This document shows, piece after piece, positions 7,409 through 38,848 of a stretch of 64,000 nt of DNA. The notes below the pieces were generated by a model. That model was not told the origin of the DNA. It worked only from the letters and a program-made list of their open reading frames with translations, and made no database searches. This DNA is from a virus, in IMG/VR virus record IMGVR_UViG_3300028394_000038; one strand, given 5' to 3'. Each line of letters starts with the position of its first letter. Positions within the stretch are counted from its first letter, which is position 1. A program made the translations under genes and the position numbers.

Positions 7409-7415
7409 ATAAATA
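7409..7415 (+). promoter_or_regulatory. T4-late-like promoter motif ATAAATA
   Basis: Intergenic, ~20 nt before a structural gene start; same motif recurs at many intergenic positions. Confidence 0.6.
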
Positions 7416-21219: not shown

Positions 21220-22050
21220 ATGGACTATTATAATGTATTAGGTGTTCCTAGAGGTGCTAGCCCCGAGGACATTAAAAAAGCCTATAGAAAACTAGCCGCT
21301 GTACATCATCCAGATAGGGGTGGTGATACACAACAGTTTCAACAACTGCAAGAAGCATACGCAACACTCAGTGACGATCAAAAACGTGCCGAGTACGATA
21401 ACCCGCAACCACAATTTGGCGGGCCAGGTGGATTCCACTTTAATACCGGAAATATGAATGATATTTTTGGTAATATGTTTGGCGGACCGTTTGGCGGATT
21501 TCAGCAACGTGGAATGATGCGTAAAAATAAAAGTATCAATATCACTGTACAGATGACTCTTAAAGATATTCTGCATGGTAAAGATGTTATTGGTAGTATT
21601 CGATTACCTTCCGGTAGAGAACAAGCACTGCAACTTAAAATCCCTAGAGGGGTTGCAATGGGCGACAGTATTCGATTCCACGAGATGGGAGACGATACTC
21701 ATCCGCAACTGCAACGTGGAGACCTAATTGCTGTTATTCAAGAAATACCGCATCCACAGTTTGAACGTAGGTGTGCAGACCTGTACACCACTGCACCGAT
21801 ATCTGTGTTTGATACAATGCTTGGAACATCAATTAAGATTCAAACTGTAGAAGATTCAACATTGGATATCACCATACCGGCAGGTATCAATCCAGGTACT
21901 ACTATGTCATGTAATCAATACGGATTGCCACTTGGTATGCATGAACACCGACGCGGTAATTTGTATGTTAAAATTGATGTTGTTGTTCCAAAGTCAATAG
22001 ACTACGAAGATGCTGAAATATTAAGACATTTAAAATCCAAGTACGGTTGA
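21220..22050 (+). CDS. dnaJ: DnaJ-class co-chaperone (type II / CbpA-like, no Zn finger)
   Basis: J-domain with HPD, G/F-rich linker, C-terminal substrate domain. Confidence 0.88.
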   Translation: MDYYNVLGVPRGASPEDIKKAYRKLAAVHHPDRGGDTQQFQQLQEAYATLSDDQKRAEYDNPQPQFGGPGGFHFNTGNMNDIFGNMFGGPFGGFQQRGMMRKNKSINITVQMTLKDILHGKDVIGSIRLPSGREQALQLKIPRGVAMGDSIRFHEMGDDTHPQLQRGDLIAVIQEIPHPQFERRCADLYTTAPISVFDTMLGTSIKIQTVEDSTLDITIPAGINPGTTMSCNQYGLPLGMHEHRRGNLYVKIDVVVPKSIDYEDAEILRHLKSKYG

Positions 22051-22101: not shown

Positions 22102-24354
22102 ATGGTAGAACCAAGTGATCAATTACAACAAGTATTTGAAAAAGCAGTTGAAGACTGTAAAAAACTCTCGCACGAGTATGTAACGCTAGAACATTTAGTG
22201 TATGCTATGCTTTGCGAAGAAAAATTCTTTGAGCTATTAACAAATTTTGGTTCTGATACAACATATATCAAAACCAACCTAGAGCATTATTTGAAAACTA
22301 ATCTTGACGAGATTAAAATTGAAAATGCTCCAAGGGGATTTAAACCTAAAAAGACGCAGACAGTCGAGCGTGTGCTAAATCGTGCGTTTACACAGGTGTT
22401 GTTTAGCGGACGTCAAAGTATTGAACTTGTTGATGTGTTTTTAAGTATCCTTAGTGAAAAACGTAGCTACGCTGTTTATTATATTAATAAGGGCGGTATT
22501 GAGCGTGATAAATTTGCCGATTTTGTTAATAACGAACTCAACGAAGAAGAAGAAGATACTGTAGTAGATGCACAAAGCGAAAAAGCATTAAGAGCATTTA
22601 CCACTAACCTTAATGATCAAGTTAAGAAAGCAAAAGTTGATCCTGTAATTGGTCGAGTGGAAGAGCTTGAGCAAATTGCATTAGGACTAGGTCGTCGTAC
22701 TAAAAACAATGTATTATTAGTCGGAGACCCGGGCGTTGGTAAGACTGCTATCGCAGAGGGCCTTGCATTTAATATTATTCACGGTGCTGTTCCAGAATTC
22801 TTAAAAGAATACACCGTATTCAATTTAGATATTAGTGCTATGCTTGCCGGCAGTAAGTATCGTGGAGACTTTGAAGAACGTTTCAAACTAGTGCTTAAAG
22901 CTCTTGCCGGCAAAGGTAAGACTATTTTATTCATTGATGAAGCGCACATGATTAGTGGCGCAGGTGCCGGTGGTAGCAATAGTAGTAATGATCTTGCTAA
23001 CATGATGAAGCCAGCATTGAGTAAAGGCACTATCAAAGTTGTAGCTAGTACCACATGGGAAGAATATCGCAAGCACTTTGAAAAAGATCGCGCATTGATG
23101 CGTCGATTCCAACGTATCACCGTTGACGAGCCTACTCCAGAAGTGGCCATTGATATTCTTAAAGGTATTAAGAAGTATTACGAAAAGCACCACAATGCTA
23201 CTATTAGCGATGCGGCTGTTGAGTCAGCAGTTAAGTTAAGCGTTAAGTATCTGACTGATCGTAAGCTACCAGACAAGGCTATTGACTTGATCGATGTTGC
23301 ATGTTCACGCTTTAACATCAAACAAGTTGATAACAGAAGTGTTGATGTAGCTGAGATTCAATTTGAGCTTGCTAAGATGGCTAACTTACCTGAAGAAACT
23401 GTCAAAGAAAAAGAAAGTGAAAATCTTGTTCACCTTGAAAAGAATCTTAAAGGTGAAATTTACGGACAAGACGAAGCTATTACAGAAGTTGTTGACAAGA
23501 TTCTTGTTGCACAGGCTGGCTTGAAAGCAGAAAATAAACCTATTGGTAGTTTTGTGTTCATGGGCCCAACTGGTGTTGGTAAAACTGAAGCGGCCAAACA
23601 ATTGGCTAGACAATTGGGTATTCCAATGATCCGTTTTGATATGAGTGAATATCAAGAAAAACATTCTGTAAGCAAGTTAATTGGAAGCCCTCCAGGTTAT
23701 GTTGGCTTTGAAGAAAACGCAGGTCTACTGATTACTAAACTGCAAGAACAACCACATTGTGTATTATTGCTAGACGAGATTGAAAAGTCACACCCAGATG
23801 TGTCAACTATCTTATTACAGTTAATGGACAATGGTAAAGTTACAGGATCTAATGGTAAAGAAGCAGACTGCCGAAATGTAGTGCTTATTATGACCACTAA
23901 CTTAGGTGCCGCTGACGCAGATCGTAATGTTATTGGTTTTGGTAGTCAAGAAAACGACTACGAAGATAAAGAACTTAAGAAGTTCTTTGCTCCAGAGTTC
24001 CGTAATCGTTTAGATGGTATCATTACATTCAGCAAACTAAGCAAAGAAACAATGATTAAAATTGTTGGCAAGTTCCTAGTAGAACTCAAAGCTCAAGTTA
24101 ATGATAAAGGCATTAAAGTTACTATTAGCAACGAAGCTATCGACTACTTGGTAGAAAAAGGTTTTGACAGCAAGATGGGTGCTAGGCCATTACAGCGTGT
24201 TATTGACAAAGATGTTAAACGTCCGCTGTCACGCGAAATGTTATTTGGTGGATTAAAAGACGGCGGCACAGTTGAGATTGATGTTAATGACTCTGGTATT
24301 ATATTGAAAGTTAAAGAGAATGTATCAGAAGAAAACTACCAAACTATTCTTTAA
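22102..24354 (+). CDS. clpA: ATP-dependent Clp protease ATPase subunit ClpA
   Basis: Clp N domain, two AAA+ modules (GDPGVGKT, GPTGVGKT), IGF ClpP-docking loop, no ClpB middle domain. Confidence 0.92.
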   Translation: MVEPSDQLQQVFEKAVEDCKKLSHEYVTLEHLVYAMLCEEKFFELLTNFGSDTTYIKTNLEHYLKTNLDEIKIENAPRGFKPKKTQTVERVLNRAFTQVLFSGRQSIELVDVFLSILSEKRSYAVYYINKGGIERDKFADFVNNELNEEEEDTVVDAQSEKALRAFTTNLNDQVKKAKVDPVIGRVEELEQIALGLGRRTKNNVLLVGDPGVGKTAIAEGLAFNIIHGAVPEFLKEYTVFNLDISAMLAGSKYRGDFEERFKLVLKALAGKGKTILFIDEAHMISGAGAGGSNSSNDLANMMKPALSKGTIKVVASTTWEEYRKHFEKDRALMRRFQRITVDEPTPEVAIDILKGIKKYYEKHHNATISDAAVESAVKLSVKYLTDRKLPDKAIDLIDVACSRFNIKQVDNRSVDVAEIQFELAKMANLPEETVKEKESENLVHLEKNLKGEIYGQDEAITEVVDKILVAQAGLKAENKPIGSFVFMGPTGVGKTEAAKQLARQLGIPMIRFDMSEYQEKHSVSKLIGSPPGYVGFEENAGLLITKLQEQPHCVLLLDEIEKSHPDVSTILLQLMDNGKVTGSNGKEADCRNVVLIMTTNLGAADADRNVIGFGSQENDYEDKELKKFFAPEFRNRLDGIITFSKLSKETMIKIVGKFLVELKAQVNDKGIKVTISNEAIDYLVEKGFDSKMGARPLQRVIDKDVKRPLSREMLFGGLKDGGTVEIDVNDSGIILKVKENVSEENYQTIL

Positions 24355-24990: not shown

Positions 24991-24997
24991 ATAAATA
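24991..24997 (+). promoter_or_regulatory. T4-late-like ATAAATA heading the putative internal-protein cluster
   Basis: Intergenic motif. Confidence 0.6.
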
Positions 24998-25020
24998 CTC
25001 TATAATAAGGTATCTGTGCT

Positions 25021-25365
25021 ATGAGAATGGATGAAGTTGTAAACTCAGTATTAAATCTAGAAGAAATGGATCTGCCTGACGATCTACATTTCTTCATGCA
25101 TAACGATCACAATTTCTATCGTAAAGTGTTCTTTCCTATGATTAGCAAGGTTAAAGCACACATTAAAGCAGGTAATCGTTGTCACGATGGTGTTTTTCGT
25201 CCTGTAGTTGATCATGCCGCAGAAGCATACTGCAAAAAATTTAATATTCCCGATAACCATAAGTCAGTGTTTACTAACATTGACCGTGACGAACTAGCCC
25301 GTAAGATTTTTGGTCAAGAAAAGGATCGCATTGAGCAGGGCGACTATGATGGAGACGACCAATGA
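25021..25365 (+). CDS. Hypothetical protein, putative head-internal protein
   Basis: MRMDEV... N-terminus; first gene after the late motif. Confidence 0.6.
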   Translation: MRMDEVVNSVLNLEEMDLPDDLHFFMHNDHNFYRKVFFPMISKVKAHIKAGNRCHDGVFRPVVDHAAEAYCKKFNIPDNHKSVFTNIDRDELARKIFGQEKDRIEQGDYDGDDQ

Positions 25366-26123
25366 TTTTATTAGAAGGCGGAAATGTATTTGCTAATGCA
25401 ACTCCATTTGATCACAAAGATGTTCCTGCAATACTCAAAACAATTAACGGAGCACTAGCTGGCACAGGTATTACTGCTATCCCCGTTGGCTCTGCCGCAA
25501 CTCCTAAACCAGGTAAGACTAGTGGCGATATGGATGTTATTGTTGACGAACAGGCTGTATTAAACTACTTTAAAGTCAAAGATGCTAAAGCAGGTCGTAA
25601 AGCACTTAACGATTATATCAGCAGTAAAGGTTTAGAAACAGCACAAAGCGGTATTAACGTTCACGTAAATGTTCCAGTTGGCGGAGAATTTCATCAAGTA
25701 GATGTTATGGTATCAGCTAATGCTGAGAAAGTATCTAAGTTTCACACACATACTATTCCCGATAACAGTCCGTACAAGGGTGTCAACAAACAACTAATGA
25801 TGGCTATCCTTGCCAAACAGAAAAACTACATGTGGTCAGCATGGCAGGGATTGTTTAGTCGTACACCAGAAGGTAAGAAGGGCGACCTAGTTGCTGACAA
25901 CTTAGATGATGTAGCTAAACACCTATTTGGACCTAACGGTAGTGCTAAAGATTTAGGTAGCGTAGAAAGTATTCTTGCCGCATTACCAAAACAAGAAGCA
26001 GATGCATTACTAGCAAAAGCCAAAGAAGATGCCAACTGGAAAGAAGTACCAGTCCGTCAAGAAAGTTATCGTATTGGAACTAATGAATGGTTTCGCCACA
26101 TGTTGGATAAGGTACAGTTATGA
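25362..26123 (+). CDS. Pol-beta-superfamily nucleotidyltransferase-like protein
   Basis: VGS...SGDMDV and downstream QVDVM (GS, DxD, third Asp); starts MILLE. Confidence 0.65.
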   Translation: MILLEGGNVFANATPFDHKDVPAILKTINGALAGTGITAIPVGSAATPKPGKTSGDMDVIVDEQAVLNYFKVKDAKAGRKALNDYISSKGLETAQSGINVHVNVPVGGEFHQVDVMVSANAEKVSKFHTHTIPDNSPYKGVNKQLMMAILAKQKNYMWSAWQGLFSRTPEGKKGDLVADNLDDVAKHLFGPNGSAKDLGSVESILAALPKQEADALLAKAKEDANWKEVPVRQESYRIGTNEWFRHMLDKVQL

Positions 26124-27262
26124 GATTAAGACAACTGTTTAAAGAAGCAGAAGCACCTAAACAGTTAGGTCGAGCATTTAACCACCTAGAAGATCTAGTT
26201 TTCTTTCACGGTACTAAAGGCACACTTGAAGCACTAAGTCATATCAAAGATTTTGCTAGTCAAGAAGGAGCTAATAGTATTCGTATGAAGTGGGACGGTA
26301 ATCCACAAATATATTGGGGCCGTGCTGAGGCTAACGGTCCTTTAATACTTGCAGGACATAATGGTTGGAGCAAAGGTGCTGTAACAGATAGTCCAGAAGC
26401 AGTACAAGATTTTATTGCCAATAAGTCGGGAAGTCCAAAAACTCCCGAAGAGAAAGAAGCAAGAGATAAATTTGCCAGCGAGTTCGCTAGTCTGTATCCC
26501 CTGTTTGACAAAGCTACTCCACGAGACTTCGTGGGCTTTGTATATGCAGATGGTTTGTTCTTACAACAACCTCCAGCAGATAAAGAAGGCATATATAACT
26601 TTTGTCCCAATAATAAAAGTCAAACATGTTATCATGTGAGATCCAATAGCGGATTAGGTAAGCGTATTGCTAATGCACAAGTAATGGTAGTGGGACATGC
26701 GTTTTTTCCAGAGTTTGGTATGCCAGATGCTAGTCAAAAGCCTATCAGTGACTTCAGTCAGTTCAATAGTAATCCACAGTTAATTGTTCTTGGCCCAATA
26801 TACAACAGCAAGCCTGTTAAGATTGATACTACAGCAGTCGATGCCATTGAGCAGTTTGCACAGGCGCACGGTGGTCAAATGGATGGATTCCTACAAGGGC
26901 TTCCGGGACTAAGCGACCTAAAAAATATTATCTACACTTATGTAAATCAAACTGCCAAAGCAAAACAGTTAGACAGTCTAAGTCCAAAACATTTTACAGA
27001 TTGGTTAGCTGTATCAAAGACTAGTCCAGGCAAACAACAAAAGATTAATGATCTAGTTGCGGCAAACCCAACTGCACTAGCAACTATCTTTACACTGGTA
27101 AAAAGAATACAAGCAATGAAAGACGACATCATTGATCAAATCGAAGGCGAACAGGGTGAGATATGGGACACAAATGGCGAAGGTCGTGTTCGATATGCGG
27201 ATCAAAATAAACAGCTAGGTCACGTTAAACTTGTACCTCGCAAGCGTTGGACGCCGACCTAA
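26120..27262 (+). CDS. Ligase-like (KxDG) nucleotidyltransferase-fold protein
   Basis: HLED...MKWDG motif I-like, late GEGRV and VKLV motifs; starts MRLRQLFKE. Confidence 0.55.
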   Translation: MRLRQLFKEAEAPKQLGRAFNHLEDLVFFHGTKGTLEALSHIKDFASQEGANSIRMKWDGNPQIYWGRAEANGPLILAGHNGWSKGAVTDSPEAVQDFIANKSGSPKTPEEKEARDKFASEFASLYPLFDKATPRDFVGFVYADGLFLQQPPADKEGIYNFCPNNKSQTCYHVRSNSGLGKRIANAQVMVVGHAFFPEFGMPDASQKPISDFSQFNSNPQLIVLGPIYNSKPVKIDTTAVDAIEQFAQAHGGQMDGFLQGLPGLSDLKNIIYTYVNQTAKAKQLDSLSPKHFTDWLAVSKTSPGKQQKINDLVAANPTALATIFTLVKRIQAMKDDIIDQIEGEQGEIWDTNGEGRVRYADQNKQLGHVKLVPRKRWTPT

Positions 27263-27271
27263 GGACTTATT

Positions 27272-28303
27272 ATGAAACTAAGACAGATATTTGAAGGGCT
27301 AGGACAAGAAGTTGCCATTATATTTGGTCGCTTTAATCCTCCGCACAAGGGACATAGAGCCGCATGGGAACTTGCCGCTAAGAGTCCTGTTTGGTATGTA
27401 GGTACTAACGAAAGCACAGTAGGTCCAAAAGATCCATTGCCTTACGGCATTAAGGTAGAAGCAATGACTGCTATATGGCCAGAAGTTGAAGGACATATTA
27501 TTGCAGAAACATCATGGCTAACGCTAGCCAGTCTGGTCTATGAAAAACACGGTGATGTTACACTACTATGTCTAACTGATGAAGATTGGGTTACTAAAAC
27601 CATTGTACAGTATAATGGTAAAGAAGGCGCACACGGTTTCTATAATTTTAAAACTATTAAACAAAAACCAACACCACGTTTAAGTTCAGCTACAGCATTA
27701 CGTGATGCAGTTTCTAAAGGTGATCGTGAAGCGTTTGCCACTGCCGCTGGTGTAGATGCTGATACTCCTGTAGCTGGTAAACCGTTCTTTGATCTAGTAG
27801 CAGAATACCTGCTACCATACTCTAATGCACCTGTAAAGAAAGTAGCAAAGAAAAAAGTTGCGGCTCCTGTGGAAGGCGTAACAGAAGCCACCTTAGGAAC
27901 TGCATTAGAGTGGCCAGAAGTTGCAAACAAAGTTAACAGCGCAATGAGGGCTATGGGTTGGAAAGGTCAACGTAAAGGCGATGATGCGTTTATGTTCTCA
28001 ACTAAAGGTCAAGAAACTGACGATCAGTTTTATTTTGTTATCATAGAAAATGCAGGTAACAACATGTTTCATTATGCACTAGGTACAGTAGAAGACGGTG
28101 ATCCTCATATTGATGATGCTTATAAAGGTAATCTACCCAATACTGAAGCAAGTGTTAGTGAATTAATGAACGATATACGTGAAGGCTTTGGATTGCACGA
28201 AGATGCCGCAGGTGTAGGTATCATTACTAAACAGAATTCAACTGTGGATGTAAACAAAGGTACACCCCGTAAAAATCTCAAAGCATTTAGACTAGTAAAA
28301 TGA
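27272..28303 (+). CDS. HIGH-family cytidylyl/adenylyltransferase-like protein with C-terminal extra modules
   Basis: FGRFNPPHKGH, SATALR; starts MKLRQIFE. Confidence 0.75.
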   Translation: MKLRQIFEGLGQEVAIIFGRFNPPHKGHRAAWELAAKSPVWYVGTNESTVGPKDPLPYGIKVEAMTAIWPEVEGHIIAETSWLTLASLVYEKHGDVTLLCLTDEDWVTKTIVQYNGKEGAHGFYNFKTIKQKPTPRLSSATALRDAVSKGDREAFATAAGVDADTPVAGKPFFDLVAEYLLPYSNAPVKKVAKKKVAAPVEGVTEATLGTALEWPEVANKVNSAMRAMGWKGQRKGDDAFMFSTKGQETDDQFYFVIIENAGNNMFHYALGTVEDGDPHIDDAYKGNLPNTEASVSELMNDIREGFGLHEDAAGVGIITKQNSTVDVNKGTPRKNLKAFRLVK

Positions 28304-28587
28304 AACAATATAAGATAACAAGTCAAGATTTAAATCAGGATAGTCCTGATGATTGTTATCTTGCGCCCAATGATCCTGTACATGAACTAAAAATATTATC
28401 AGGTATGGGCGGACTAGGTGCAGAAGCTAGACTACACGAGTATCGTGCCAATCAAGGTAGTAACATAAGTGTTACTGGAGATAGCAAGGGCGAACTAATG
28501 AAGAAGCATAACATACAACCTGGAACTAAAGAATGGTTTAAGTTATGGTTTAGTCGTCCTTATCTTACCGGAGAACCTCCCGTATGA
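28300..28587 (+). CDS. Hypothetical protein
   Basis: C-terminal IQPGTKEWFKLWF resembles IGTNEWF at the end of the 25362 protein. Confidence 0.65.
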   Translation: MKQYKITSQDLNQDSPDDCYLAPNDPVHELKILSGMGGLGAEARLHEYRANQGSNISVTGDSKGELMKKHNIQPGTKEWFKLWFSRPYLTGEPPV

Positions 28588-28991
28588 CTTTACGTGAACT
28601 GTTTGAACATAAAAAAGGCATTCGTGCTAAAAAATATAACAAGAAACCTAAGAAGTTTATTGAACCAATCAAGCCAAAGAAAGCAGAAGCGCCCCATACA
28701 ACAGAAGACCTAGACGAAGGTTGGAAAACTAAAGTTGCAGGTGCCGCAATGGCAGCGGCAAATATGTTAGGAACACCGGCTCATGCTAACGATGTAGAAT
28801 ATAAACTTCCCGATATTGTTGCTCATATTACTATGACAGTAAATGGCAAGACGATTGAAAAAGAAATCAATCTAGGTACTGAATATCAAAGTCCGGCAGA
28901 AGCAGAAAAAGCTGTTGCTAAATGGTTAAAAGAAAAAGGTATTAAAAGTTATAGAATAGATTTACAACGTGCTAATACAAATAAAGATTAG
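28584..28991 (+). CDS. Putative head-internal protein
   Basis: MTLRELFE N-terminus, Lys-rich. Confidence 0.6.
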   Translation: MTLRELFEHKKGIRAKKYNKKPKKFIEPIKPKKAEAPHTTEDLDEGWKTKVAGAAMAAANMLGTPAHANDVEYKLPDIVAHITMTVNGKTIEKEINLGTEYQSPAEAEKAVAKWLKEKGIKSYRIDLQRANTNKD

Positions 28992-29025
28992 AAAAATATA
29001 TTAAATATTGCATGAGGAAAATATT

Positions 29026-29358
29026 ATGAAAATGCGCGAACTATTAGAAGCAAAAACTAAAAAAGCCGAAACACCCAAGCCACGTAACTTTGTAGCTAAA
29101 AATGCTATCAATACTGGCGCTGGCGCACATAAAGACAAAAAGAAAGCCGCAAAGCAAGGTGATGCTAAACACAAGAATAAAGACTATGAAATGGCTGAAT
29201 CTGCTAGTGCAGGTGCTACTAGTGCGGCTAACGTAGGAGTTGGGCCAGTATACCCTAACAAAACAGGTAAAACTAATAAGAATAAAGACGGTACAACAAA
29301 AAATGCATTAGATGTTAAGGGTACTAACTTACTTACTGGTGGCAGCTTAAAACGATAA
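29026..29358 (+). CDS. Putative head-internal protein, Lys-rich (start revised to ATG 29026)
   Basis: MKMRELLE; GAGG SD; TAAATA at 29002-29007. Confidence 0.65.
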   Translation: MKMRELLEAKTKKAETPKPRNFVAKNAINTGAGAHKDKKKAAKQGDAKHKNKDYEMAESASAGATSAANVGVGPVYPNKTGKTNKNKDGTTKNALDVKGTNLLTGGSLKR

Positions 29359-29361
29359 ATA
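29355..29361 (+). promoter_or_regulatory. T4-late-like ATAAATA
   Basis: Motif before 29385. Confidence 0.6.
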
Positions 29362-29384
29362 CATAAAGACAACGGAGTTACCTC

Positions 29385-30425
29385 ATGCAACCACAAGTAC
29401 AAATGCAAGGACCAGATGACGAAGGCGGAATGGCCCGTGCTGACCTATATAGAGCTGCCAAGCACTCTATGAAACTGTTTCAAATGATTCAGAATAACCA
29501 ACAGTTAGAAGGTTGGGTACAAGCAAAGATTACTAAAGCGGCAGATTACTTAGACAGTATCTACCACTATATGGAATATCAAGTAAAGTTTGGACAAGGC
29601 GCAGTTGCGTCAAGTGTTGATGACATTACTGGAGATATGGAAACTGCCGCTCGTGCCGCAGAAGAAGCCGATGACGAAAAAATGGAAATGGAAGAATCTA
29701 TGAACTACGAACAAAAACTACAGGCACTATTAGAAAGTGCTGTTAAGAAAGCCAAGAAAGATTATGATGGCGATGGCAAAGTTGAAACAAACAAAGATGA
29801 AGTTTGGGGATCACGTGCCAAGGCTGCGGCAAAAGCAGGCAAGCCATTCAAAGAAGGTTTCCCAACTGTCGATGATGCAAAGAAAAATGCACAGGGTACA
29901 GCAGGCATGAAGCCAGGCGAAAAGAAAAAGTCTAGCACTGGTGGTACTATTGAAAAGACCAAGACCGGTATCAAACATACTGCTGGTAAAAACTACAGTG
30001 GCAAAGGCGTTGCTGAAGCAAAGTTTGATCCGCTAAAGCACGTTAAGAATCCTACTCCAGGTGAGAAGAAAGCCGCTAAAGATGTCAAGCGTGGTAGCTA
30101 TGCAGATCGTGCGGCAATGTTAAAGTCAGCTGAAAAAGACGGACGTTTAAAAGAAGCTGATGGCAAATGCAATCACTCTGCTAAAGGTGAGAAGTGTCCA
30201 GTACACGGTCTAAAAGAATGTGGTAGTACAATGGCATACGAAGCGGCAAAGCCAAGCGCAGGCATGAGTAAAGGTGCTAAGTCAGCATTAGTTAAAAAAG
30301 CTAAGGCAGGCGGTGACGTTGGCAAACCAGGCAAGAGCTTTGACAAGGTAGCTAAAGCCGCAGGTGGTGGTGAGAAAGGTAAGAAGATTGCCGCTGCCGC
30401 TATGTGGAAAAACGCTGCCAAATAA
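29385..30425 (+). CDS. Putative head-internal/core protein with basic modules
   Basis: LEGWVQAKITKA N-domain; Lys/Ala/Gly-rich blocks separated by hydrophobic-x-E sites. Confidence 0.6.
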   Translation: MQPQVQMQGPDDEGGMARADLYRAAKHSMKLFQMIQNNQQLEGWVQAKITKAADYLDSIYHYMEYQVKFGQGAVASSVDDITGDMETAARAAEEADDEKMEMEESMNYEQKLQALLESAVKKAKKDYDGDGKVETNKDEVWGSRAKAAAKAGKPFKEGFPTVDDAKKNAQGTAGMKPGEKKKSSTGGTIEKTKTGIKHTAGKNYSGKGVAEAKFDPLKHVKNPTPGEKKAAKDVKRGSYADRAAMLKSAEKDGRLKEADGKCNHSAKGEKCPVHGLKECGSTMAYEAAKPSAGMSKGAKSALVKKAKAGGDVGKPGKSFDKVAKAAGGGEKGKKIAAAAMWKNAAK

Positions 30426-30437
30426 GGAATAGACAAA

Positions 30438-31292
30438 ATGGATATGAAGAAGATATTACAAGCCTTTGACGGGGCAACTACGAAGAAGCCTGTTCAAGGT
30501 GCTAATGATATGAAAAAATTTGTATCTATTATTCGAGAAAGCAGTAATCCATATACACCTACACAAGAATCTGTTATTACAAGTTTTGAAGAAGGTTCAG
30601 TAGGCGGTGATGCTAATGCGTTCTTATTGGCTGCTGATACTATCCAAGACGAAGTAATGGCACAGGTCAATAAGATTAAGATTAACGCAGACGAAGCTAG
30701 CCTACGTGACATGATGGATAAGTTTAATGCGTTCATGACTGCTTATCACAATGTTGGCAAAGGTATTCTACAACCAGACATGTTTAACGACAGCATGGGC
30801 GAAAGCACAGAAGAACAAGTTGATGAAGCTGGTGCATTCCGCAAACCTGGTAGTCCAACAGCATACGATAGAGATTATGCAAGTAGCGTAAGTGGTATGG
30901 GTAGAACTAATGGGCCAAAAGGGTATGACAGTGATGGCAATCCTCAAGGCGGCGGATATGATGAATATCCTAATGAGCCACGTGGTCAACGTTATCAAGC
31001 TCCGCAAGACAGACCTGTAATGACTGGCATGTTCTTTTATAATGTACAACCAGGTCAAGAAGAACTTGCCGCAAGTTTAGGTGTTAAGAAAACAAAAAGT
31101 GGTAAGTGGGCAAAGACCAAATATACTACTAGCGGTGATTCTTTTAAATTTCAAAAGGGCAGAGCTGATAAAGAGTTTGGCGTCGGCAAATGGTGGGCTC
31201 CTAAAACAGAAAGTGTTGAGCAAGGTGTGGCGGAAGGTCTAAGTTTTAAAGATTATTTTAATTTAACAGAAGCTAAAAAAGGTCTTGAATAA
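30438..31292 (+). CDS. Putative head-internal protein
   Basis: MDMKKIL/MKKFVSIIRES; several hydrophobic-x-E sites. Confidence 0.55.
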   Translation: MDMKKILQAFDGATTKKPVQGANDMKKFVSIIRESSNPYTPTQESVITSFEEGSVGGDANAFLLAADTIQDEVMAQVNKIKINADEASLRDMMDKFNAFMTAYHNVGKGILQPDMFNDSMGESTEEQVDEAGAFRKPGSPTAYDRDYASSVSGMGRTNGPKGYDSDGNPQGGGYDEYPNEPRGQRYQAPQDRPVMTGMFFYNVQPGQEELAASLGVKKTKSGKWAKTKYTTSGDSFKFQKGRADKEFGVGKWWAPKTESVEQGVAEGLSFKDYFNLTEAKKGLE

Positions 31293-31681
31293 TGAGATAC
31301 TTAGCTGTTGCACTAATATTGTGCTTAACTGGATGTGCTAGTATTAAGGAAATGATTCCTAGTTTTCAAGACGTTAATCAATCAGCTAAGATTATTGATG
31401 TGCGTCAAAGTGTAGCACAGTTAGATTGCAAACAACCACATGCACCGCAAGTTAAACAGATTAAAGATAACCTAGAATGGTTTGAACTATATAGTACTAG
31501 TAAAGGCGAAAGACAAAACGATGTATTGCGTTTGATTAAACCAATGCAAGAAACTGTAGATGATTTTTACAAACGTAGTACAAGTGAAAAGCAAGGTAGC
31601 GATACCTATTGCGAGATTAAGAAAAAGTTAATGACTACACAGGCCGAACGTGCGGCTAGTGTAGTACTAGGGAGATTCTAA
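31292..31681 (+). CDS. Lipoprotein
   Basis: Lipobox LTGC at residue 15. Confidence 0.7.
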   Translation: MRYLAVALILCLTGCASIKEMIPSFQDVNQSAKIIDVRQSVAQLDCKQPHAPQVKQIKDNLEWFELYSTSKGERQNDVLRLIKPMQETVDDFYKRSTSEKQGSDTYCEIKKKLMTTQAERAASVVLGRF

Positions 31682-31914
31682 TGAACGAACTTATGCAATG
31701 TATTAACTCAGGTAAAGGCTGGGCGGCTGAACGTGCTAATACAGCATATCAGATTGGACAGGCATTAGAATCTGGACAGATTGATCCAAGTGAAGCAAAA
31801 GAGTTATTAGAAGATTTGGTTAGAACAGATAGATTAGATGCAGAAGCAGACGATATGGCTCTTAAGGCCATGTTAGTCACAGGCATCTATGCAGTAATAC
31901 AGATATGTGGCTAA
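31681..31914 (+). CDS. Hypothetical protein
   Basis: Translationally coupled ORF. Confidence 0.6.
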   Translation: MNELMQCINSGKGWAAERANTAYQIGQALESGQIDPSEAKELLEDLVRTDRLDAEADDMALKAMLVTGIYAVIQICG

Positions 31915-31915
31915 T

Positions 31916-32350
31916 ATGGAACAGTTAATCAACGCATTAAAAATAGCATTTGCCAGTGAATATGCATTTGCATTAAAAGCACAAAACTTTCATTGGAACA
32001 CTGAAGGTCCAGACTTTTACGAGTTTCATTTGTTGTTTGAAACAATCTATGACGAAGTTTACGGAAGTATTGATGCATTTGCAGAAAATATTCGTAAAAG
32101 CGGTGCATACACTCCTGCTAGCTTATCTAGATTTAGTATGTTAACCACAGTGGAAGATGAGAATCAAGTTATTGATCCACGATCAATGACTGCTGAACTG
32201 TTAGCTGACAGTGATAAACTAGCACAGTTAATGGCAATGGTTTATAAAATGGCTGATGCCGCAGGCGAGTTTGGTCTATCTAACTTCTTAGCTGATCGTC
32301 AAGATGCACACCGCAAGCACAGCTGGTTCCTACGTTCTACATTAAAATGA
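31916..32350 (+). CDS. dps: Dps / ferritin-like protein
   Basis: NFHWN..GPDFYEFH..F...Y...ID..AE.IR; HRKHSWFL. Confidence 0.9.
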   Translation: MEQLINALKIAFASEYAFALKAQNFHWNTEGPDFYEFHLLFETIYDEVYGSIDAFAENIRKSGAYTPASLSRFSMLTTVEDENQVIDPRSMTAELLADSDKLAQLMAMVYKMADAAGEFGLSNFLADRQDAHRKHSWFLRSTLK

Positions 32351-32489
32351 GAGAAAATGAATATCCAGTCTATCCAGAAGATGATGGCACCGACCGTCCT
32401 CGCAACCCTTACAGCCCTGTATAATGGCCTAGCATTGTTTGGGTGCGGCCTAGCTGGTATTCCTTTGACTATTGGAGATTTACAAGATT

Positions 32490-33212
32490 ATGAGAGCAAG
32501 TGAATTTATAATCGAATCATGGAGTCAGAAATACAAAAAGAGTATTAACTGCTCGCATCCTAAAGGCTTTAGTCAACGTGCTCACTGTGCCGGCAGAAAG
32601 AAACACAACGAAAGTGTTGAAATGGAAATGGTCTGCCCTGATTGCAACATGTGTGAATCCCATGGCAATCTTAGTGAAATTAAAAAAGGTGCCAAAGACA
32701 GCAACGGCTTTACTAAATGTTGGTCCGGATATCATGCCGCAGGTACAAAGAAAGGTAAGAACGGTTCAGTACGTAACTGTGTAAAGAACGAAAGCACAGA
32801 GCTAGAAGAAGAGTTTGATCTTATTGAATCGATTATATCCAACCTAGCTTTACGTAATGGTGTTAACGAAGATGCTGTCTGGGAAGATTTAGAAACACTC
32901 ACAGACGATGAGCTATATGTGTTTGCTGTTACACAACCAGTTAATGAAGATTGGCAGAAAGTTAACAAACACGATAAGACTTCGGGCATGAGTCAAAAGG
33001 CTGTCAATGCCTATCGTAGAGAAAATCCAGGTAGCAAACTAAAAACTGCCGTAACGACTAAACCTAGTAAACTAAAAAGAGGTAGCAAAAGTGCCAAGCG
33101 TCGATCAAGTTATTGTTCTAGATCCGCTGGACAAAAACGTATGCATCATATAGATTGTTCAAAGACTCCAGATAAGGCAATCTGTGCGGCACGTCGTCGT
33201 TGGAACTGTTAA
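32490..33212 (+). CDS. Putative head-internal modular basic protein (start revised to ATG 32490)
   Basis: MRASEFIIE; Cys/Lys/Arg-rich modules. Confidence 0.65.
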   Translation: MRASEFIIESWSQKYKKSINCSHPKGFSQRAHCAGRKKHNESVEMEMVCPDCNMCESHGNLSEIKKGAKDSNGFTKCWSGYHAAGTKKGKNGSVRNCVKNESTELEEEFDLIESIISNLALRNGVNEDAVWEDLETLTDDELYVFAVTQPVNEDWQKVNKHDKTSGMSQKAVNAYRRENPGSKLKTAVTTKPSKLKRGSKSAKRRSSYCSRSAGQKRMHHIDCSKTPDKAICAARRRWNC

Positions 33213-33973
33213 TGCGAGCAAAAGAGTTCCAGCCAAAAAAACTAGTTATCTTTGATATAGATGACACGCTGGTTCATACACAAACTAAAGTCCACGTGGT
33301 CAAAGACGGACAGGTAACTAAAGAACTTAACAGTCATGAGTTTACACACTATAAACTACAACCGGGAGAACAGTTTGATTTTGAGAACTTTCGTAACGCA
33401 CATGACTTTTTCCACAAAAGTAAACCGATCATTCCAATGATGAATCAACTCAAGCAAGACATCGCTACTGGTAACAAAGTAGTAATGGTAACTGCTCGTG
33501 CTGACTTTGATGATAAAGAGCTATTCTTAGATACATTCCGCAAGTATGGTGTAGACATGGCAAAAGTTCATGTTTATCGTGCAGGCAATATGACTGGCAA
33601 GATTCAAACAGAAGAAAAGAAAAAAATTATTATACGTAACTTGTTAGACAAGGACATTTATACTAAAGCCATAATGTATGATGATGCTGTTCCTAACTTA
33701 GAATCATTTGTAGAACTTAAGAAAGAATATCCAAAGACCAAGTTCTATGCCTGGCATGTTAGCTTAGAGGGCAAAGCAAGCGAATATCAACGTACCGATG
33801 AAAATTTTGCTGATGGAAAGCACCCAGAAGATAAAGGTGATGCTAAACGTCACGGCATTAACACTAAAGCATCAGTAAGCAGTTTACGTAAAACTGCTAA
33901 ACAAGGTGGCCGTAAAGGTCAACTAGCACACTGGTTAGCAAATATGAAAGCAGGGCGAGCAAAGAAACATTAA
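33212..33973 (+). CDS. HAD-superfamily phosphatase (PNKP-phosphatase-like) with a basic C-terminal module
   Basis: FDIDDTL, VTAR, K, YDD motifs; starts MRAKEF. Confidence 0.75.
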   Translation: MRAKEFQPKKLVIFDIDDTLVHTQTKVHVVKDGQVTKELNSHEFTHYKLQPGEQFDFENFRNAHDFFHKSKPIIPMMNQLKQDIATGNKVVMVTARADFDDKELFLDTFRKYGVDMAKVHVYRAGNMTGKIQTEEKKKIIIRNLLDKDIYTKAIMYDDAVPNLESFVELKKEYPKTKFYAWHVSLEGKASEYQRTDENFADGKHPEDKGDAKRHGINTKASVSSLRKTAKQGGRKGQLAHWLANMKAGRAKKH

Positions 33974-33975
33974 AG

Positions 33976-34083
33976 AACACACTACCTTAGGACCAGTACT
34001 CGTTACTGACTCAAGTGTGCGCCGGCTGCTGGCGCAGGACGGCCCGATTCGCTACCGGGAATCCTGAAAGTGAGCATTTTTTT
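33976..34083 (+). ncRNA. Candidate structured non-coding RNA
   Basis: GC-rich intergenic segment with abutting stems, a possible pseudoknot and a terminal U run. Confidence 0.5.
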
Positions 34084-34098
34084 ACGGCTAAATATTAG

Positions 34099-34797
34099 AT
34101 GATTATATTATATACGCTAATAGTAACACATATCACAATTGTCTGCGTTACCCTGTTCCTACATAGAGGGCAAGCGCATAAGGGATTTGTTTTTAATCCT
34201 GTACTAGAACACTTTATGCGCTTCTGGTTATGGCTAACAACCGGAATGGTTACTAAGCAGTGGGTAGCTATACATCGAAAACATCACAGATTTAGTGACG
34301 AACCCGGTGATCCTCATAGTCCGCATGTATATGGTATATGGCATGTATTATTTAAAGGTGCAGGATTGTATCATTCTGCAAGTAAAGACGCTGAAATGAT
34401 CCAACAATACGGTGTAGGCACACCCGATGATTGGATTGAACGCAACGTGTACACCCAACACAGTCGCCTGGGCATTCTCCTAATGTTAGTTATAAACTTA
34501 TTGTTATTTGGGCCGTTAGGCCTTATAGTGTGGGGTGTACAAATGATATGGATACCATTCTGGGCCGCTGGTGTTATCAATGGAGTCGGACATTGGGTTG
34601 GGTATCGTAACGGCGAAACAAAGGATCAAAGCCGCAATATTAGCCCTTGGGGTATTATTATCGGCGGTGAAGAGCTACATAATAATCATCACCTTAATCC
34701 AGCTAATCCTAAACTAAGCAGAAGTTGGTTTGAGTTTGACATGGGTTGGATGTGGTTTACCATATTTAAAACGCTTAGACTAGCTAAACTTAGATAA
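34099..34797 (+). CDS. Membrane fatty-acid (delta-9 acyl-CoA type) desaturase
   Basis: His boxes HRGQAH, HRKHH, HNNHH; TAAATA at 34089-34094. Confidence 0.9.
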   Translation: MIILYTLIVTHITIVCVTLFLHRGQAHKGFVFNPVLEHFMRFWLWLTTGMVTKQWVAIHRKHHRFSDEPGDPHSPHVYGIWHVLFKGAGLYHSASKDAEMIQQYGVGTPDDWIERNVYTQHSRLGILLMLVINLLLFGPLGLIVWGVQMIWIPFWAAGVINGVGHWVGYRNGETKDQSRNISPWGIIIGGEELHNNHHLNPANPKLSRSWFEFDMGWMWFTIFKTLRLAKLR

Positions 34798-34800
34798 ATA
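34794..34800 (+). promoter_or_regulatory. T4-late-like ATAAATA (likely leaderless transcript)
   Basis: 5 nt before ATG 34806, no SD. Confidence 0.55.
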
Positions 34801-34805
34801 TTACT

Positions 34806-35189
34806 ATGAGAGCAAAAGAATTTATTATTGAACAAGGCCACGGTGGGACAAAGAAGATTGATCCTACACATAAAGCCGCGATAAGAAATGTTATGACATT
34901 TCCTAGTATGAATCAAAGTACAGGAAGTGCCTACTTAGGTTGGCGCATGGGTATTGCTCTTGCAGGCGCACCTGATTATCCTACCAAGATGGAAGCAGAT
35001 AACTGGATTGGTGGTGATCCTTTACTATCACCGTATACTAAAGAAGAAATGGATATGGTCAAAGCTGCCGCTAAGGCTGTAGGCGGAGGTGTTCCAGAAA
35101 ACTGGACTGGTAAACGTAGTGAAGAACTTCCTGGTACACATAAAACAAGTCCAGTAGCTAAACCAAAAAGAAACAAATACGGCGTATGA
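34806..35189 (+). CDS. Putative head-internal protein
   Basis: MRAKEFIIE. Confidence 0.65.
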   Translation: MRAKEFIIEQGHGGTKKIDPTHKAAIRNVMTFPSMNQSTGSAYLGWRMGIALAGAPDYPTKMEADNWIGGDPLLSPYTKEEMDMVKAAAKAVGGGVPENWTGKRSEELPGTHKTSPVAKPKRNKYGV

Positions 35190-35500
35190 AAATAAACGAA
35201 CTATTAACAGAAGCACCTATTGACTTTGATCCTAGTGAGCCAATGAATCCCTTAGTACATAGTCATCAAGGCGCTAATCCAGGCAAGCTACAATATCGTA
35301 TGCTACGTGCGGCAGGTCAGTTAAAGGATCTTGCTAAAAGAGCAGAACACGCTAGTCCATTAGAATGGGAAACGATTTCTAAAAACTTTTCAGAACTAGC
35401 AATGAACGTTGAACAGATTAGACATGGTCTAGAAGAACTGGCCGCGCAACGTAAAAAAGGTGGCGTCCGTTCAAGAGGCATTGATCCAAACATTGGATAA
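35186..35500 (+). CDS. Putative head-internal protein
   Basis: MKINELLTEA. Confidence 0.65.
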   Translation: MKINELLTEAPIDFDPSEPMNPLVHSHQGANPGKLQYRMLRAAGQLKDLAKRAEHASPLEWETISKNFSELAMNVEQIRHGLEELAAQRKKGGVRSRGIDPNIG

Positions 35501-35507
35501 AATATAG

Positions 35508-35536
35508 TTGACACTGTCAACGCAAGGCTATATAAT
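35508..35536 (+). promoter_or_regulatory. sigma70 consensus promoter; the -35 lies in the palindrome GTTGACAcTGTCAAC
   Basis: TTGACA-N17-TATAAT. Confidence 0.8.
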
Positions 35537-36120: not shown

Positions 36121-36167
36121 AGTCAGCCATAAATGACTGCATTGGTATTTGTCAGCCCTAAATGACA
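36121..36167 (+). promoter_or_regulatory. Twin 5-bp-stem/8-nt-loop hairpins before the DNA polymerase SD (putative translational operator)
   Basis: AGTCA-gccataaa-TGACT and TGTCA-gccctaaa-TGACA, then TAAGGAG. Confidence 0.55.
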
Positions 36168-36178
36168 TAAGGAGAAAT

Positions 36179-38848
36179 ATGAGTTATGTAGATGCTCTCT
36201 TTGACAGAGAGAACGACACTATTAAAGTCGTCGAAAGAAACAATAAAGGCGAACGGGTCTATAAAGAGCACCCTGTACGCTACACATTTTACTACCCGGA
36301 TCAACGAGGCAAGTTTACTAGCATTTATGGTGATCCACTTACTAAGGTAGTATGCAAGAACACTAAAGACTTCCGGAAAGAAGTTTCTATTGCTTCAAAT
36401 AAAGAATTGTACGAAAGTGATATTAATCCAATCTTTGTACACTTATCTGAAAATTATCTAAATCAAGATGCGCCTAAATTAAATATCTGCTTCTTCGACA
36501 TTGAGGTAGACTTTGATCCAGAACGTGGCTACAGCACTCCAGAAGATGCGTTCATGCCAATCACTGCGATTACTGTTTACCTAAAATGGATGAAGAAGTT
36601 AATTACACTAGCAATGCCTCCTAAAGGCATGAAGATGGAAGATGCTGTTAAACTAGTGTCTGATATTCCGGATACACATTTGTTTGACAATGAAGGTGAT
36701 ATGTTAGAAACATTCTTGGACTTAATCCAAGACGCTGACATTATCAGTGGTTGGAACAGCGAAGGCTATGACGTTCCGTATACTGTTAATCGTGTTACTC
36801 GTGTATTAAGCAAAGAAGATACCAAACGCTTCTGTCTATGGGGACAGTTACCCAAGAAACGTGAATATGAAAAATATGGGAAGCAGGCTGTTACATATGA
36901 CTTTCACGGTCGTGTACATTTAGATAGTCTTGAACTATATCGCAAATATACATATGAAGAACGCCATACATATCGATTAGATGCTATTGGTGAAATGGAA
37001 GTAGGAGAAAACAAAACTGTCTACGAAGGTACCCTTGATCAGTTGTACAACAATGACTTTCACAAATTTATTATCTATAACAGACAAGATACACTACTGT
37101 TAAACAAACTAGATGATAAACTAAAATTTATTGATCTTGCCAACACACTAGCACACGAGTGTACTGTATTGCTACAGACCACAATGGGTGCTGTTGCTGT
37201 TACTGAACAGGCTATTATTAATGAATGTCATCGTAGAGGATTCCAAGTTCCTAATAGACAAAAGCGTGACGAAGATGCTGACAACAGCGCCGCAGGTGCG
37301 TATGTTGCTTATCCCAAAGAAGGTATTCACGAATGGATTGGTTCTTTAGATATTAACAGTCTTTATCCGTCAGCCATTCGTGCGCTTAACATGGGTCCAG
37401 AGACTATTGTTGGACAGTTACGTCAAACTGAAACTGATAACTTTATCCACGAACAAATGACACTTAAGAAAAAGTCATTTGCCGCAAGTTGGGAAGGTAT
37501 GTTTGGATCATTAGAATATCAATATGTTATGGAACAACGTATTGATAAAACTATTACCATTGATTGGGAAGATGGTAATAACACCGAACACTCTGCCGCC
37601 GAAGTCTACAAGTTAATCTTTGACAGTAATCAACCATGGATGATTAGTGCTAACGGCACTATCTTTACCTATGAAAAAGAAGGTATTATTCCGGGACTGT
37701 TAAAGCGTTGGTATGCTGAACGTAAAGAAATGCAGGCCAAACTTAAAGATTGTATCAAAGCAGAAAACAAAGTCGAAGAAGAATATTGGGATAAAAGACA
37801 GTTAGTTAAGAAGATTAACCTAAATAGTCTGTACGGTGCTATCCTTAACGCTGGTTGTAGATTCTTTGACAAGCGTATTGGACAGTCAACTACCCTAACA
37901 GGACGACAAATTGTTAAACATATGGCTGGTAAGGTGAACGAGATTATTACAGGCGATTTTGATTATCGTGGTAAAGCTATTATCTACGGTGATACTGACT
38001 CCTGTTATTTCTCTGGATATACAACGCTAAAGAAAGACATTGACTCCGGTGCTATCCCTTGGACTAAAGAAAACGTTATTGCATTGTATGACCAAGTCGG
38101 CAACGAAGTTAATAAAACATTCCCCAGCTTTATGGAAGATGCGTTTCATTGTCCGCATAGTCGCGGAGAAGTTATTAAAGCCGGTCGAGAAATTGTTGCT
38201 ATTAAAGGCTTATTCATTACTAAGAAGCGTTATGCTGTTCTTTACTTTGATAAAGAAGGCAAGCGTACAGATATAGATGGCAAGCCTGGTAAGATTAAGG
38301 CTATGGGTTTAGATTTAAAACGCAGTGATACCCCTGAATTTATTCAGAATTTCTTGAGTGATATTTTAGAACGTGTGTTAACTGCTGGCTCAGAGGATGA
38401 AGTTTTAGAACACATTACCCGATTCCGCAGTGAGTTTAAAGCTAGGCCAGGATGGGAGAAGGGCAGTCCTAAACGTGCTAACAACATTACGGACTATCAG
38501 GCTAAAGAAGCAAAAGCAGGTAAAGCCAATATGCCCGGACATGTTCGAGCAAGTATCAATTGGAATACACTACGCCGTATGAATGGAGACAAGTATTCTA
38601 TGCAGATTACAGACGGACAAAAAGTCATTGTTTGTAAACTAAAGCCAAATCCAATTGGCTTCACTTCGGTTGCATATCCAGTAGACGAATTACGTTTGCC
38701 TAAATGGTTTATGGAATTACCGTTTGACGACGCAGAAATGGAACAGACTATTATTGACAACAAACTAGAAAACTTAATTGGAGTTTTAGGTTGGGACATT
38801 AAGAGTACGGAAGAAAAAAACACTTTTAATCAACTCTTTGAGTTTTAA
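36179..38848 (+). CDS. Family B DNA polymerase (T4 gp43-like; start revised to ATG 36179)
   Basis: Exonuclease FDIE and YD motifs; DINSLYP; K..LNSLYG; YGDTDS; KKRY. Confidence 0.95.
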   Translation: MSYVDALFDRENDTIKVVERNNKGERVYKEHPVRYTFYYPDQRGKFTSIYGDPLTKVVCKNTKDFRKEVSIASNKELYESDINPIFVHLSENYLNQDAPKLNICFFDIEVDFDPERGYSTPEDAFMPITAITVYLKWMKKLITLAMPPKGMKMEDAVKLVSDIPDTHLFDNEGDMLETFLDLIQDADIISGWNSEGYDVPYTVNRVTRVLSKEDTKRFCLWGQLPKKREYEKYGKQAVTYDFHGRVHLDSLELYRKYTYEERHTYRLDAIGEMEVGENKTVYEGTLDQLYNNDFHKFIIYNRQDTLLLNKLDDKLKFIDLANTLAHECTVLLQTTMGAVAVTEQAIINECHRRGFQVPNRQKRDEDADNSAAGAYVAYPKEGIHEWIGSLDINSLYPSAIRALNMGPETIVGQLRQTETDNFIHEQMTLKKKSFAASWEGMFGSLEYQYVMEQRIDKTITIDWEDGNNTEHSAAEVYKLIFDSNQPWMISANGTIFTYEKEGIIPGLLKRWYAERKEMQAKLKDCIKAENKVEEEYWDKRQLVKKINLNSLYGAILNAGCRFFDKRIGQSTTLTGRQIVKHMAGKVNEIITGDFDYRGKAIIYGDTDSCYFSGYTTLKKDIDSGAIPWTKENVIALYDQVGNEVNKTFPSFMEDAFHCPHSRGEVIKAGREIVAIKGLFITKKRYAVLYFDKEGKRTDIDGKPGKIKAMGLDLKRSDTPEFIQNFLSDILERVLTAGSEDEVLEHITRFRSEFKARPGWEKGSPKRANNITDYQAKEAKAGKANMPGHVRASINWNTLRRMNGDKYSMQITDGQKVIVCKLKPNPIGFTSVAYPVDELRLPKWFMELPFDDAEMEQTIIDNKLENLIGVLGWDIKSTEEKNTFNQLFEF

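Follow-up and report, generated by a model that had tools for sequence, protein, structure and literature searches.

Why should a run of phage genes, whose products have little else in common, open with nearly the same handful of residues? This question is raised by a block of genes in a stretch of 64,000 nucleotides from the IMG/VR virus record IMGVR_UViG_3300028394_000038, the whole of which is termed the window hereafter and which is part of the genome of an uncultured giant myophage from freshwater, a distant member of the T4 superfamily. The original prediction had described about ten proteins encoded between positions 24,991 and 35,500 that share a capsid-targeting-like N-terminal peptide, and had regarded them as an interchangeable set of cargo proteins, which would be addressed to the head and delivered with the DNA. 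The analysis presented here suggests, at a probability of roughly 0.72, that an N-terminal peptide of eight to nine residues, referred to below as the tag, is this phage lineage's version of the T4 capsid-targeting sequence. The predicted capsid-targeting role fits every computational test available, namely the likeness to the T4 leaders, the presence of a Peptidase_S77 gene in relatives, the add-on character of the tag, and the tagged virion proteins of the cyanophage S-CREM2.

The tag follows the pattern M-[KRT]-h-x-[EQ]-h-h-(x)-E, in which h denotes a hydrophobic residue, and it opens seven genes, which are named here by their first position (26120, 27272, 28584, 29026, 32490, 34806, and 35186). 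Its core, M[KRT]xx[EQ][FLI][FLIK], has exactly seven matches in the six-frame translation of the whole 64 kb, all of which are situated 3-10 codons past a stop, open reading frames (ORFs) of 104-380 amino acids (aa), and lie between 26120 and 35186. The tag of all seven ends in IIE, FKE, IFE, LFE, LLE, or LTE, that is, with a hydrophobic residue at P3 and Glu at P1. Tags were scored with a position matrix trained on the tags of 80 related IMG/VR loci (1.08 Mb; labelled L004, L036, etc.), from which the window was excluded, and their enrichment was assessed in the window and in two relatives, one a syntenic contig of 167 kb and the other a contig of 356 kb rated 96% complete. In the window, the seven tagged gene starts score 10-21 bits and the next best gene start at most 3.5, while 9 bits is reached by none of the internal Met positions, so that the enrichment implied by the original prediction is borne out (7 of 87 gene starts versus 0 of 382 internal Met positions). 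Moreover, the seven tagged genes fall within 15 consecutive genes of the 87 (permutation p = 2.5e-5). Beyond the tag, no similarity was found among the seven protein bodies, which agrees with the earlier statement that the rest of each protein is unrelated.

The number of tagged proteins, in contrast, has to be lowered from about ten to seven full tags, since gene 33212 retains a remnant and genes 25021 and 25362, formerly counted as weaker matches, carry no tag. The start of 33212 (MRAKEF) scores -0.5 bits and is devoid of the closing h-x-Glu, and it looks like a tag that was cut short by domain fusion, as judged from its sequence. Gene 25021 scores -2.0. The LLEGGNVF start of 25362 represents a conserved piece of a nucleotidyltransferase-like domain, which is internal in longer fused homologues, and it is thus part of that domain rather than a tag.

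The same peptide recurs far beyond the window. A looser form of the pattern yielded 220 matches in the 80 related loci, 203 of which are located at ORF starts, and these belong to at least nine sequence clusters. In the 356-kb relative, where the tagged genes are scattered, tags were found at 10 of 417 gene starts versus 1 of 1,911 internal Met positions. Comparison of 72 distinct tag DNAs revealed most information in the second codon positions and least in the third, which indicates that the constraint acts on the peptide; although synonymous and first-base changes are seen, the hydrophobic and Glu positions persist. The family of the 127-aa protein 34806 comprises 583 homologues, and nearly all of the 120 listed begin with a tag variant; in an alignment of 50 members, M1 and E9 are at least 90% conserved and residues 10-17 vary. 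A similar situation is encountered for the DUF6267 protein encoded by 26120, the body of which is 70-98% identical in 120 relatives, whereas the leader is variable in sequence and length. Among more distant DUF6267 representatives, 28 of 150 possess a strong tag (at least 8 bits), and many others start right at the conserved body. In the AlphaFold2 model of 26120, residues 1-19 are without structure, the mean predicted local distance difference test (pLDDT) score being 94.4. The tag is therefore an unstructured add-on, which a conserved enzyme family carries in some of its members and lacks in others; it is real, confined to N-termini, and portable. The description of the set as interchangeable is also supported, as both gene and cassette content vary between close relatives.

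Comparison with T4 discloses what such a portable leader resembles. The T4 leaders, taken from NC_000866, read MAKINELLRE in gp24, MKTYQEFIAE in IPII and IPIII, MLKEQLIAE in gp22, and MNEPQLLIE in gp21, and the tag of 35186 (MKINELLTE) differs from the gp24 leader by one missing and one substituted residue. When the matrix trained on the freshwater loci was applied to the 6,848 Met positions in the six frames of T4, gp24 ranked first, Alt fourth, and IPIII and IPII twelfth and thirteenth. The second position in this ranking is occupied by gp2 (MAIFQIINE, 76885, minus strand), the DNA-end protector carried in the head, and the eighth by the 54-aa ORF 61.1 (MKTFKEFIKE, 19130, minus strand). Residues 4 and 7 of the T4 leader have been reported to be important in targeting, and residues 8 and 10 in cutting (PMC9026906). 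In addition, leaders on unrelated proteins are viewed as the means by which T4-like phages load varied cargo, and the tagged internal proteins of T4, together with Alt, are injected into the host (PMC9026906, PMC5694885).

The prohead protease gene, which the original prediction had proposed to locate, was found in relatives, where a Peptidase_S77 (gp21-type) gene is present in three large related contigs, including the 167-kb contig syntenic with the window and the 356-kb contig. In the two contigs examined, the genes are arranged in the T4 order of portal, small core protein, acidic protein, protease, scaffold, and capsid protein. The N-terminus of the relatives' capsid protein can be aligned by eye with the gp23 propeptide of T4, with L-S-E or L-L-E in the place of the T4 L-T-E, and their small core protein begins with MILRELF, a weak form of the tag. 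Furthermore, a tagged low-complexity protein of 361-399 aa is encoded near the portal gene in two relatives.

As a proxy, information on virions is available for the cultured T4-like cyanophage S-CREM2, the published virion proteome of which contains 52 proteins (PMC10665884, Table 3). A T4-type pattern, [MV][KQRN]x[FLYI]xx[FLI][LFIMV]xE, which was written after the virion N-termini of this phage had been seen, occurs six times when the 175 kb of S-CREM2 are translated in all six frames; five of these matches coincide with annotated gene starts, and all five genes encode virion proteins, namely ORF6 (SAM hydrolase), ORF14 (kinase), ORF154 (cytidylyltransferase), and the uncharacterised ORF13 and ORF136. 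T4-type tags are in this phage a mark of non-structural proteins that were detected in its virions. ORF154 is homologous to 27272 (E = 3e-8), and another virion protein, ORF137, shares DUF6321 with 32490 (75% identity over 96 aa). The tag dialect of S-CREM2 is M-K-x-F-x-x-F-L-x-E, and its tagged genes are dispersed, in contrast with their clustering in the window. Neither 'internal' nor 'capsid targeting sequence' was found when the text of PMC10665884 was searched. The enzyme row of the window, consisting of the upstream protein, the DUF6267 protein, and the cytidylyltransferase, recurs in cyanophages and in the cultured methylophage Melnitz; the set is tagged in Melnitz, where a gene for the homologous enzyme begins with MKKFSEIIE, in the 9-residue dialect, and the cytidylyltransferase homologue is tagged in both S-CREM2 and S-SCSM2R.

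The ATAAATA motif is depleted in the window, where 10 sites were counted and 27.9 would be expected. Nine of these sites lie on the coding strand, and almost every site is positioned 5-35 nt 5' of a start codon, those of tail-fibre-like genes included. Depletion, strand bias, and start-proximal placement together fit a promoter of the T4 late kind, and ATAAATA is probably the late promoter of this lineage. T4's own TATAAATA is absent from the window. Five (A)TAAATA sites had been listed for the block, of which those at 24991, 29355, and 34794 are full ATAAATA motifs on the plus strand, while those at 29002 and 34089 are TAAATA only. A Shine-Dalgarno sequence is not visible in 34794-34808, which may point to a leaderless transcript or to a motif that belongs to the next gene. 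Other ATAAATA sites, each 5-35 nt 5' of a start codon, were noted at 7409, 10548, 16943, 19626, and 53885 on the plus strand and at 63216 on the minus strand.

Taken as a version of the T4 capsid-targeting sequence, the tag would operate as follows. The tagged genes would be transcribed late from the ATAAATA promoters, and the tag would dock each protein into the core of the assembling prohead, where a gp21-type (Peptidase_S77) prohead protease would cut after the tag-terminal Glu of the hydrophobic-x-Glu site. The protease would also cut at sites of this kind within the proteins, as a rule V-[AST]-E followed by a small residue, which would free multi-module proteins as separate pieces inside the head, and the pieces would exit with the DNA at infection. 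We infer physical packaging, docking, cleavage after Glu, injection, and an early take-over or counter-defence role of the cargo, delivery into the host with the DNA being proposed by analogy with T4 (PMC9026906).

Internal sites of the same kind mark the places where these proteins differ between relatives. In six families, domain insertions, swaps, and fusions are placed exactly after an h-x-Glu site, the junction counts being small and the alignment ambiguous at one or two joints. In 16 of 120 DUF6267 proteins, a basic Cys module of 35 aa with V-N-E at its end is inserted exactly between the tag Glu and the mature start, and this module is also found behind the tag of 32490. The DUF6321 part of 32490 likewise starts after V-N-E, and in L004 it comes directly after a tag ending in I-N-E. 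The HxGH enzyme of 27272 is near-identical in six relatives up to G-V-T-E (or LDE, IDE, VEE, or MTE), and an unrelated cassette of variable length and then a conserved tail of 30 aa are located past this junction. In nine loci, the 127-aa body known from 34806 is fused behind the HxGH enzyme, and the eight such junctions inspected show V-A-E, V-S-E, or L-S-E at the place of the tag, except for the L033 fusion. The basic tail of 33212 starts after T-D-E, and in relatives it starts after a tag ending in I-F-E or a cassette ending in I-S-E.

Insertions and deletions among the relatives of 29385 and 30438 have x-x-Glu at their limits. Relatives of 30438 harbor cassettes of about 50-80 aa, none of which occurs in the window, after V-A-E or G-T-E, with A-K-E or Y-S-E at their ends, and one relative lacks the 29385 segment that lies between V-A-E and L-K-E. 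In L036, the modules of 29026, 29385, and 30438 are united in one tagged polyprotein with the 29026 tag and module at its head, and the polyproteins of L062 and L073 are headed by the same tag and module, which are joined to the 29385 module. The motif G-[VIL]-x-E-[AGSF] occurs three times in the 3,018 residues of the block versus once in the other 17,427. Because the module boundaries lie exactly after h-x-Glu, the proteins look like protease-cut strings of exchangeable modules, and the pattern looks like what a protease that cuts modules apart would leave. A tentative and so far rather doubtful extension is that the phages maintain a recombining library of small effector modules in the form of polyproteins, in which prohead-protease sites bound the modules and one N-terminal address carries the whole chain, which is cut apart in the head. 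If so, the protease site would be both a processing signal and a shuffling joint, for instance around the hypervariable cassette between the HxGH enzyme and its tail, and the locus would amount to a diversity-generating system for injected cargo, which has not been described for T4. These protease-bounded exchangeable modules are the most original part of the analysis. Both the capsid targeting of T4 and the variability of internal-protein loci in T-even phages have been described before.

Three other explanations of the shared peptide deserve consideration. The best remaining alternative, which is nevertheless unlikely, accepts that the tag loads proteins into the prohead and is cut, and regards these proteins as core- or scaffold-like parts or DNA-condensing peptides, which stay in the head or are degraded and are no host effectors. 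Many modules are indeed small, basic, and of low complexity, like the T4 internal peptides, and both the tagged 361-399-aa protein and the MILRELF protein adjoin the portal and protease genes in two relatives; some tagged bodies, by contrast, are well-folded and highly conserved enzymes without an obvious capsid job. An exclusively structural role also accords poorly with the injection by T4 of both its tagged internal proteins and Alt (PMC9026906, PMC5694885) and with the SAM hydrolase and kinase among the tagged virion proteins of S-CREM2.

It is distinctly improbable that the tag is a docking or recognition signal for another machine, candidates being the phage's own ClpA/ClpB-like ATPase and DnaJ-like protein or a membrane-targeting route. 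Such a machine might be suspected from the genes directly upstream of the tagged block, which encode, as assigned by eye, a J-domain (DnaJ-like) protein (21220-22050) and a 750-aa ClpA/ClpB-like AAA+ protein (22102-24354), as well as from the Gly/Ala-rich hydrophobic segments of some tagged proteins and the lysozyme-like domain of one relative. Against it, the tag-trained matrix singles out the protease-cut head proteins of T4, a phage that is not known to have such a Clp-type ATPase; the tagged genes are scattered in the 356-kb relative, and the h-x-Glu rule at internal module junctions is not predicted by this proposal. Least of all can the shared start be credited as a by-product without any targeting function, that is, as an amphipathic helix, a translation-friendly A-rich start, or a piece copied by recombination. 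The tag codons are A/T-rich (AAA, AGA, GAA, ATT) and recombination within or beside the tag is clear in 33212 and its relatives, yet none of the remaining 80 gene starts in the window has the tag, and hardly any gene start of T4 or S-CREM2 does. Moreover, neither the retention of the hydrophobic and Glu positions despite synonymous and first-base changes, nor the conservation of M1 and E9 (at least 90% in the aligned members of the 583-member family) next to residues that vary, would be anticipated for a by-product.

Several observations weigh against the capsid-targeting role itself. The protease was seen in relatives, whereas the 64 kb of the window contain no head module. As the S-CREM2 pattern was fitted to known N-termini, only its specificity counts as a test, and the freshwater matrix did not detect the S-CREM2 tags, so that this proteome supports the principle rather than the dialect of the window. 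Both enzymes are untagged in S-WAM2 and S-H9-1, and so is the cytidylyltransferase of 121Q, which indicates that these enzymes do not need packaging to work. In L004, the homologue of 28584 (L004:2634-3473) keeps the tag and the Lys-rich and Gly/Ala-rich parts and ends in another C-terminal domain with a GH19-lysozyme-like motif (by eye), and this version resembles a membrane-released endolysin more than head cargo. Untagged genes also occur inside the same block (31292-32350 and 34099-34797), where the products are a lipoprotein-like ORF (by eye, from its LTGC lipobox), a protein of the Dps/ferritin type (Pfam E = 1e-20), and a membrane protein that resembles fatty-acid desaturases (E = 8e-15). 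Finally, when the tag was considered as a repeat of the scaffold, the scaffold was not enriched and internal tag-like cores were rare (about 0.04 per 100 aa).

How far the tag corresponds to known systems can be specified in some detail. According to later accounts of the T4 capsid-targeting sequence (Mullaney & Black 1996 via PMC9026906, PMC5694885), the latter is likewise a short leader on unrelated proteins, which is removed by gp21 and has a hydrophobic P3 and a Glu P1. Close matches are the KINELLxE of gp24 and the EFIxE of IPII/III, and Alt provides a precedent for enzyme cargo. Unlike the T4 leader, that of the window has 8-9 residues instead of 10 and is without the aromatic residue of T4 position 4; seven tagged genes are gathered in one 9-kb, presumably late block, ligase-like and HxGH enzymes are among the presumed cargo, and the same kind of site recurs at module junctions inside the proteins. 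The polymorphic internal-protein loci of T-even phages, as cited in PMC9026906 (Repoila et al. 1994), encode different basic proteins with leaders like the capsid-targeting sequence, and they resemble the present block in that conserved sequence surrounds a set of leader-bearing genes whose membership changes from one close relative to the next. In contrast to those loci, the variation seen here is often within a protein, where one cassette takes the place of another and the enzyme domain before it and the tail behind it are conserved. In SPN3US and other phiKZ-like giants, a related protease cleaves many proteins of the head interior after Glu, some of them at several sites, and the propeptides are thought to target proteins to the prohead (PMC5694885). 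Those propeptides are mostly longer than 100 residues, with the motif A/S/G-x-E, and the phages are not close relatives, whereas the leader of the window is T4-sized and T4-like. No description of such tags in cyanophages or giant freshwater phages was found in the open-access literature.

The features of the block are compiled in Table 1. Judged by sequence and fold comparisons, the tagged cargo would comprise two enzymes, one RNA-ligase-like and the other an HxGH nucleotidyltransferase, together with small basic Cys modules and several uncharacterised domains. A resemblance of 29026 to the ribosome-rescue factor ArfA was suspected, the matches of this protein being weak ones to DUF7230 and phrog_1359.

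Table 1. Genes and promoter-like elements of the tagged block and its borders (positions in the window)
Feature	Position	Strand	Remarks
ATAAATA late-promoter-like motif	24991..24997	+	24 nt 5' of gene 25021
253-aa untagged protein	25362..26123	+	pol-beta-type nucleotidyltransferase-like motif (by eye); stop overlaps next start
Tagged (MRLRQLFKE) DUF6267 protein, RNA/DNA-ligase-like covalent nucleotidyltransferase	26120..27262	+	Pfam DUF6267
Tagged (MKLRQIFE) HxGH nucleotidyltransferase	27272..28303	+	weak CTP_transf_like and TIGR00125 matches
Tagged (MTLRELFE) 135-aa protein	28584..28991	+	Lys-rich stretch, Gly/Ala-rich hydrophobic segment, small C-terminal domain
Tagged (MKMRELLE) 110-aa basic protein	29026..29358	+	weak DUF7230 / phrog_1359 matches
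ATAAATA late-promoter-like motif	29355..29361	+	5' of gene 29385
Two untagged genes, 346 and 284 aa (29385, 30438)	29385..31292	+	built from modules, GVAE junctions inside
Tagged (MRASEFIIE) 240-aa chain of small Cys-containing basic modules, DUF6321 at end	32490..33212	+	Pfam DUF6321
HAD phosphatase-like protein, truncated tag (MRAKEF), conserved basic tail after TDE	33212..33973	+	weak match to PHROG annotated polynucleotide kinase
ATAAATA late-promoter-like motif	34794..34800	+	5 nt 5' of ATG of gene 34806
Tagged (MRAKEFIIE) 127-aa protein	34806..35189	+	large uncharacterised family, 583 homologues
Tagged (MKINELLTE) 104-aa protein	35186..35500	+	tag nearly identical to T4 gp24 propeptide
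Perfect sigma-70-type promoter (12/12)	35508..35536	+	closes block; heads dsbA-like and DNA polymerase genes

The first enzyme pair deserves closer description. There is a 4-nt overlap between genes 25362 and 26120, the counterparts of which in many distant relatives make up one fused protein of 580-1,100 aa with the 25362 part in front; in view of the overlap and the fusions, the nucleotidyltransferase-like and ligase-like proteins probably act together. No Pfam or NCBIfam match was obtained for 25362. In 67 diverse homologues of the DUF6267 protein, no variation was seen at K57, D59, G60, G355, and K370, and conservation reaches at least 90% at W58 and E354; these residues match motif I with its Lys (KxDG), motif IV (EG), and motif V (Lys) of ligases and capping enzymes. 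The best structural matches of its model are RNA ligases, namely 5cot, the nick-sealing ligase of Naegleria (Z 7.4), and T4 Rnl2 (Z 6.9 and 6.7); they are followed by REL1, Trl1, DNA ligases, and capping enzymes, and ligases or capping enzymes account for more than 20 of the best 40 rows. Since these Z values are middling, with 7.4 as the best, the assignment to the ligase fold is probable rather than certain. A Foldseek search with the same model returned nothing significant, and sequence searches of the PDB with 26120 and 27272 gave nothing useful.

Protein 27272 is laid out as an HxGH enzyme, the GVTE junction, a hypervariable cassette, and the conserved 30-aa tail. Its HxGH motif is that of cytidylyl/adenylyltransferases, and it is homologous to the 'NMNAT protein' of S-SCSM2R. 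The tail (28210-28303, AAGVGIITKQN..., about 30 aa) comes after the hypervariable cassette in all relatives and has no family match; in the 356-kb relative, a tail of this type forms a module of its own between the enzyme and a domain of the 127-aa type. A mini-module (CW.GY...GTKK...NCV), which spans about 30 aa and has two Cys around a basic centre of the GTKK type, was noticed in 32490 (window 32700-32800), L004, L062, L073, and Melnitz L136. It recurs in different proteins of freshwater and marine phages, and a Glu is found within a few residues after most copies. In relatives, the counterpart of 33212 starts with a complete tag and contains different cassettes, and its tail is unchanged. 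The AlphaFold2 model of the 127-aa protein 34806 is poor (pLDDT 48.8), and a homologue of this protein was not found in cultured phages.

As for the phage itself, the DNA polymerase encoded downstream of the block (36149-38848) shows 47-52% identity with the enzymes of the Agrobacterium phage Atu_ph07 and the Sinorhizobium phage Phosso and roughly 43% with those of the 121Q group, and the dsbA-like gene 5' of the polymerase gene is recognised by Pfam Phage_DsbA. A megablast comparison of the tagged block with cultured phages revealed no match at the DNA level, and a search of IMG/VR for an exact 44-mer was likewise negative.

If the tag works as its counterpart does in T4, a simple sequence rule would predict which proteins are carried in the heads of uncultured giant phages. 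The toolkit for the 'first minutes of infection' would thereby become readable from metagenomes, which in the present phage would include a ligase-like enzyme, a nucleotidyltransferase, and many uncharacterised small modules. The same rule would explain the enzymes in the virion proteomes of cyanophages, and the pattern of junctions after Glu suggests how such cargo diversifies.

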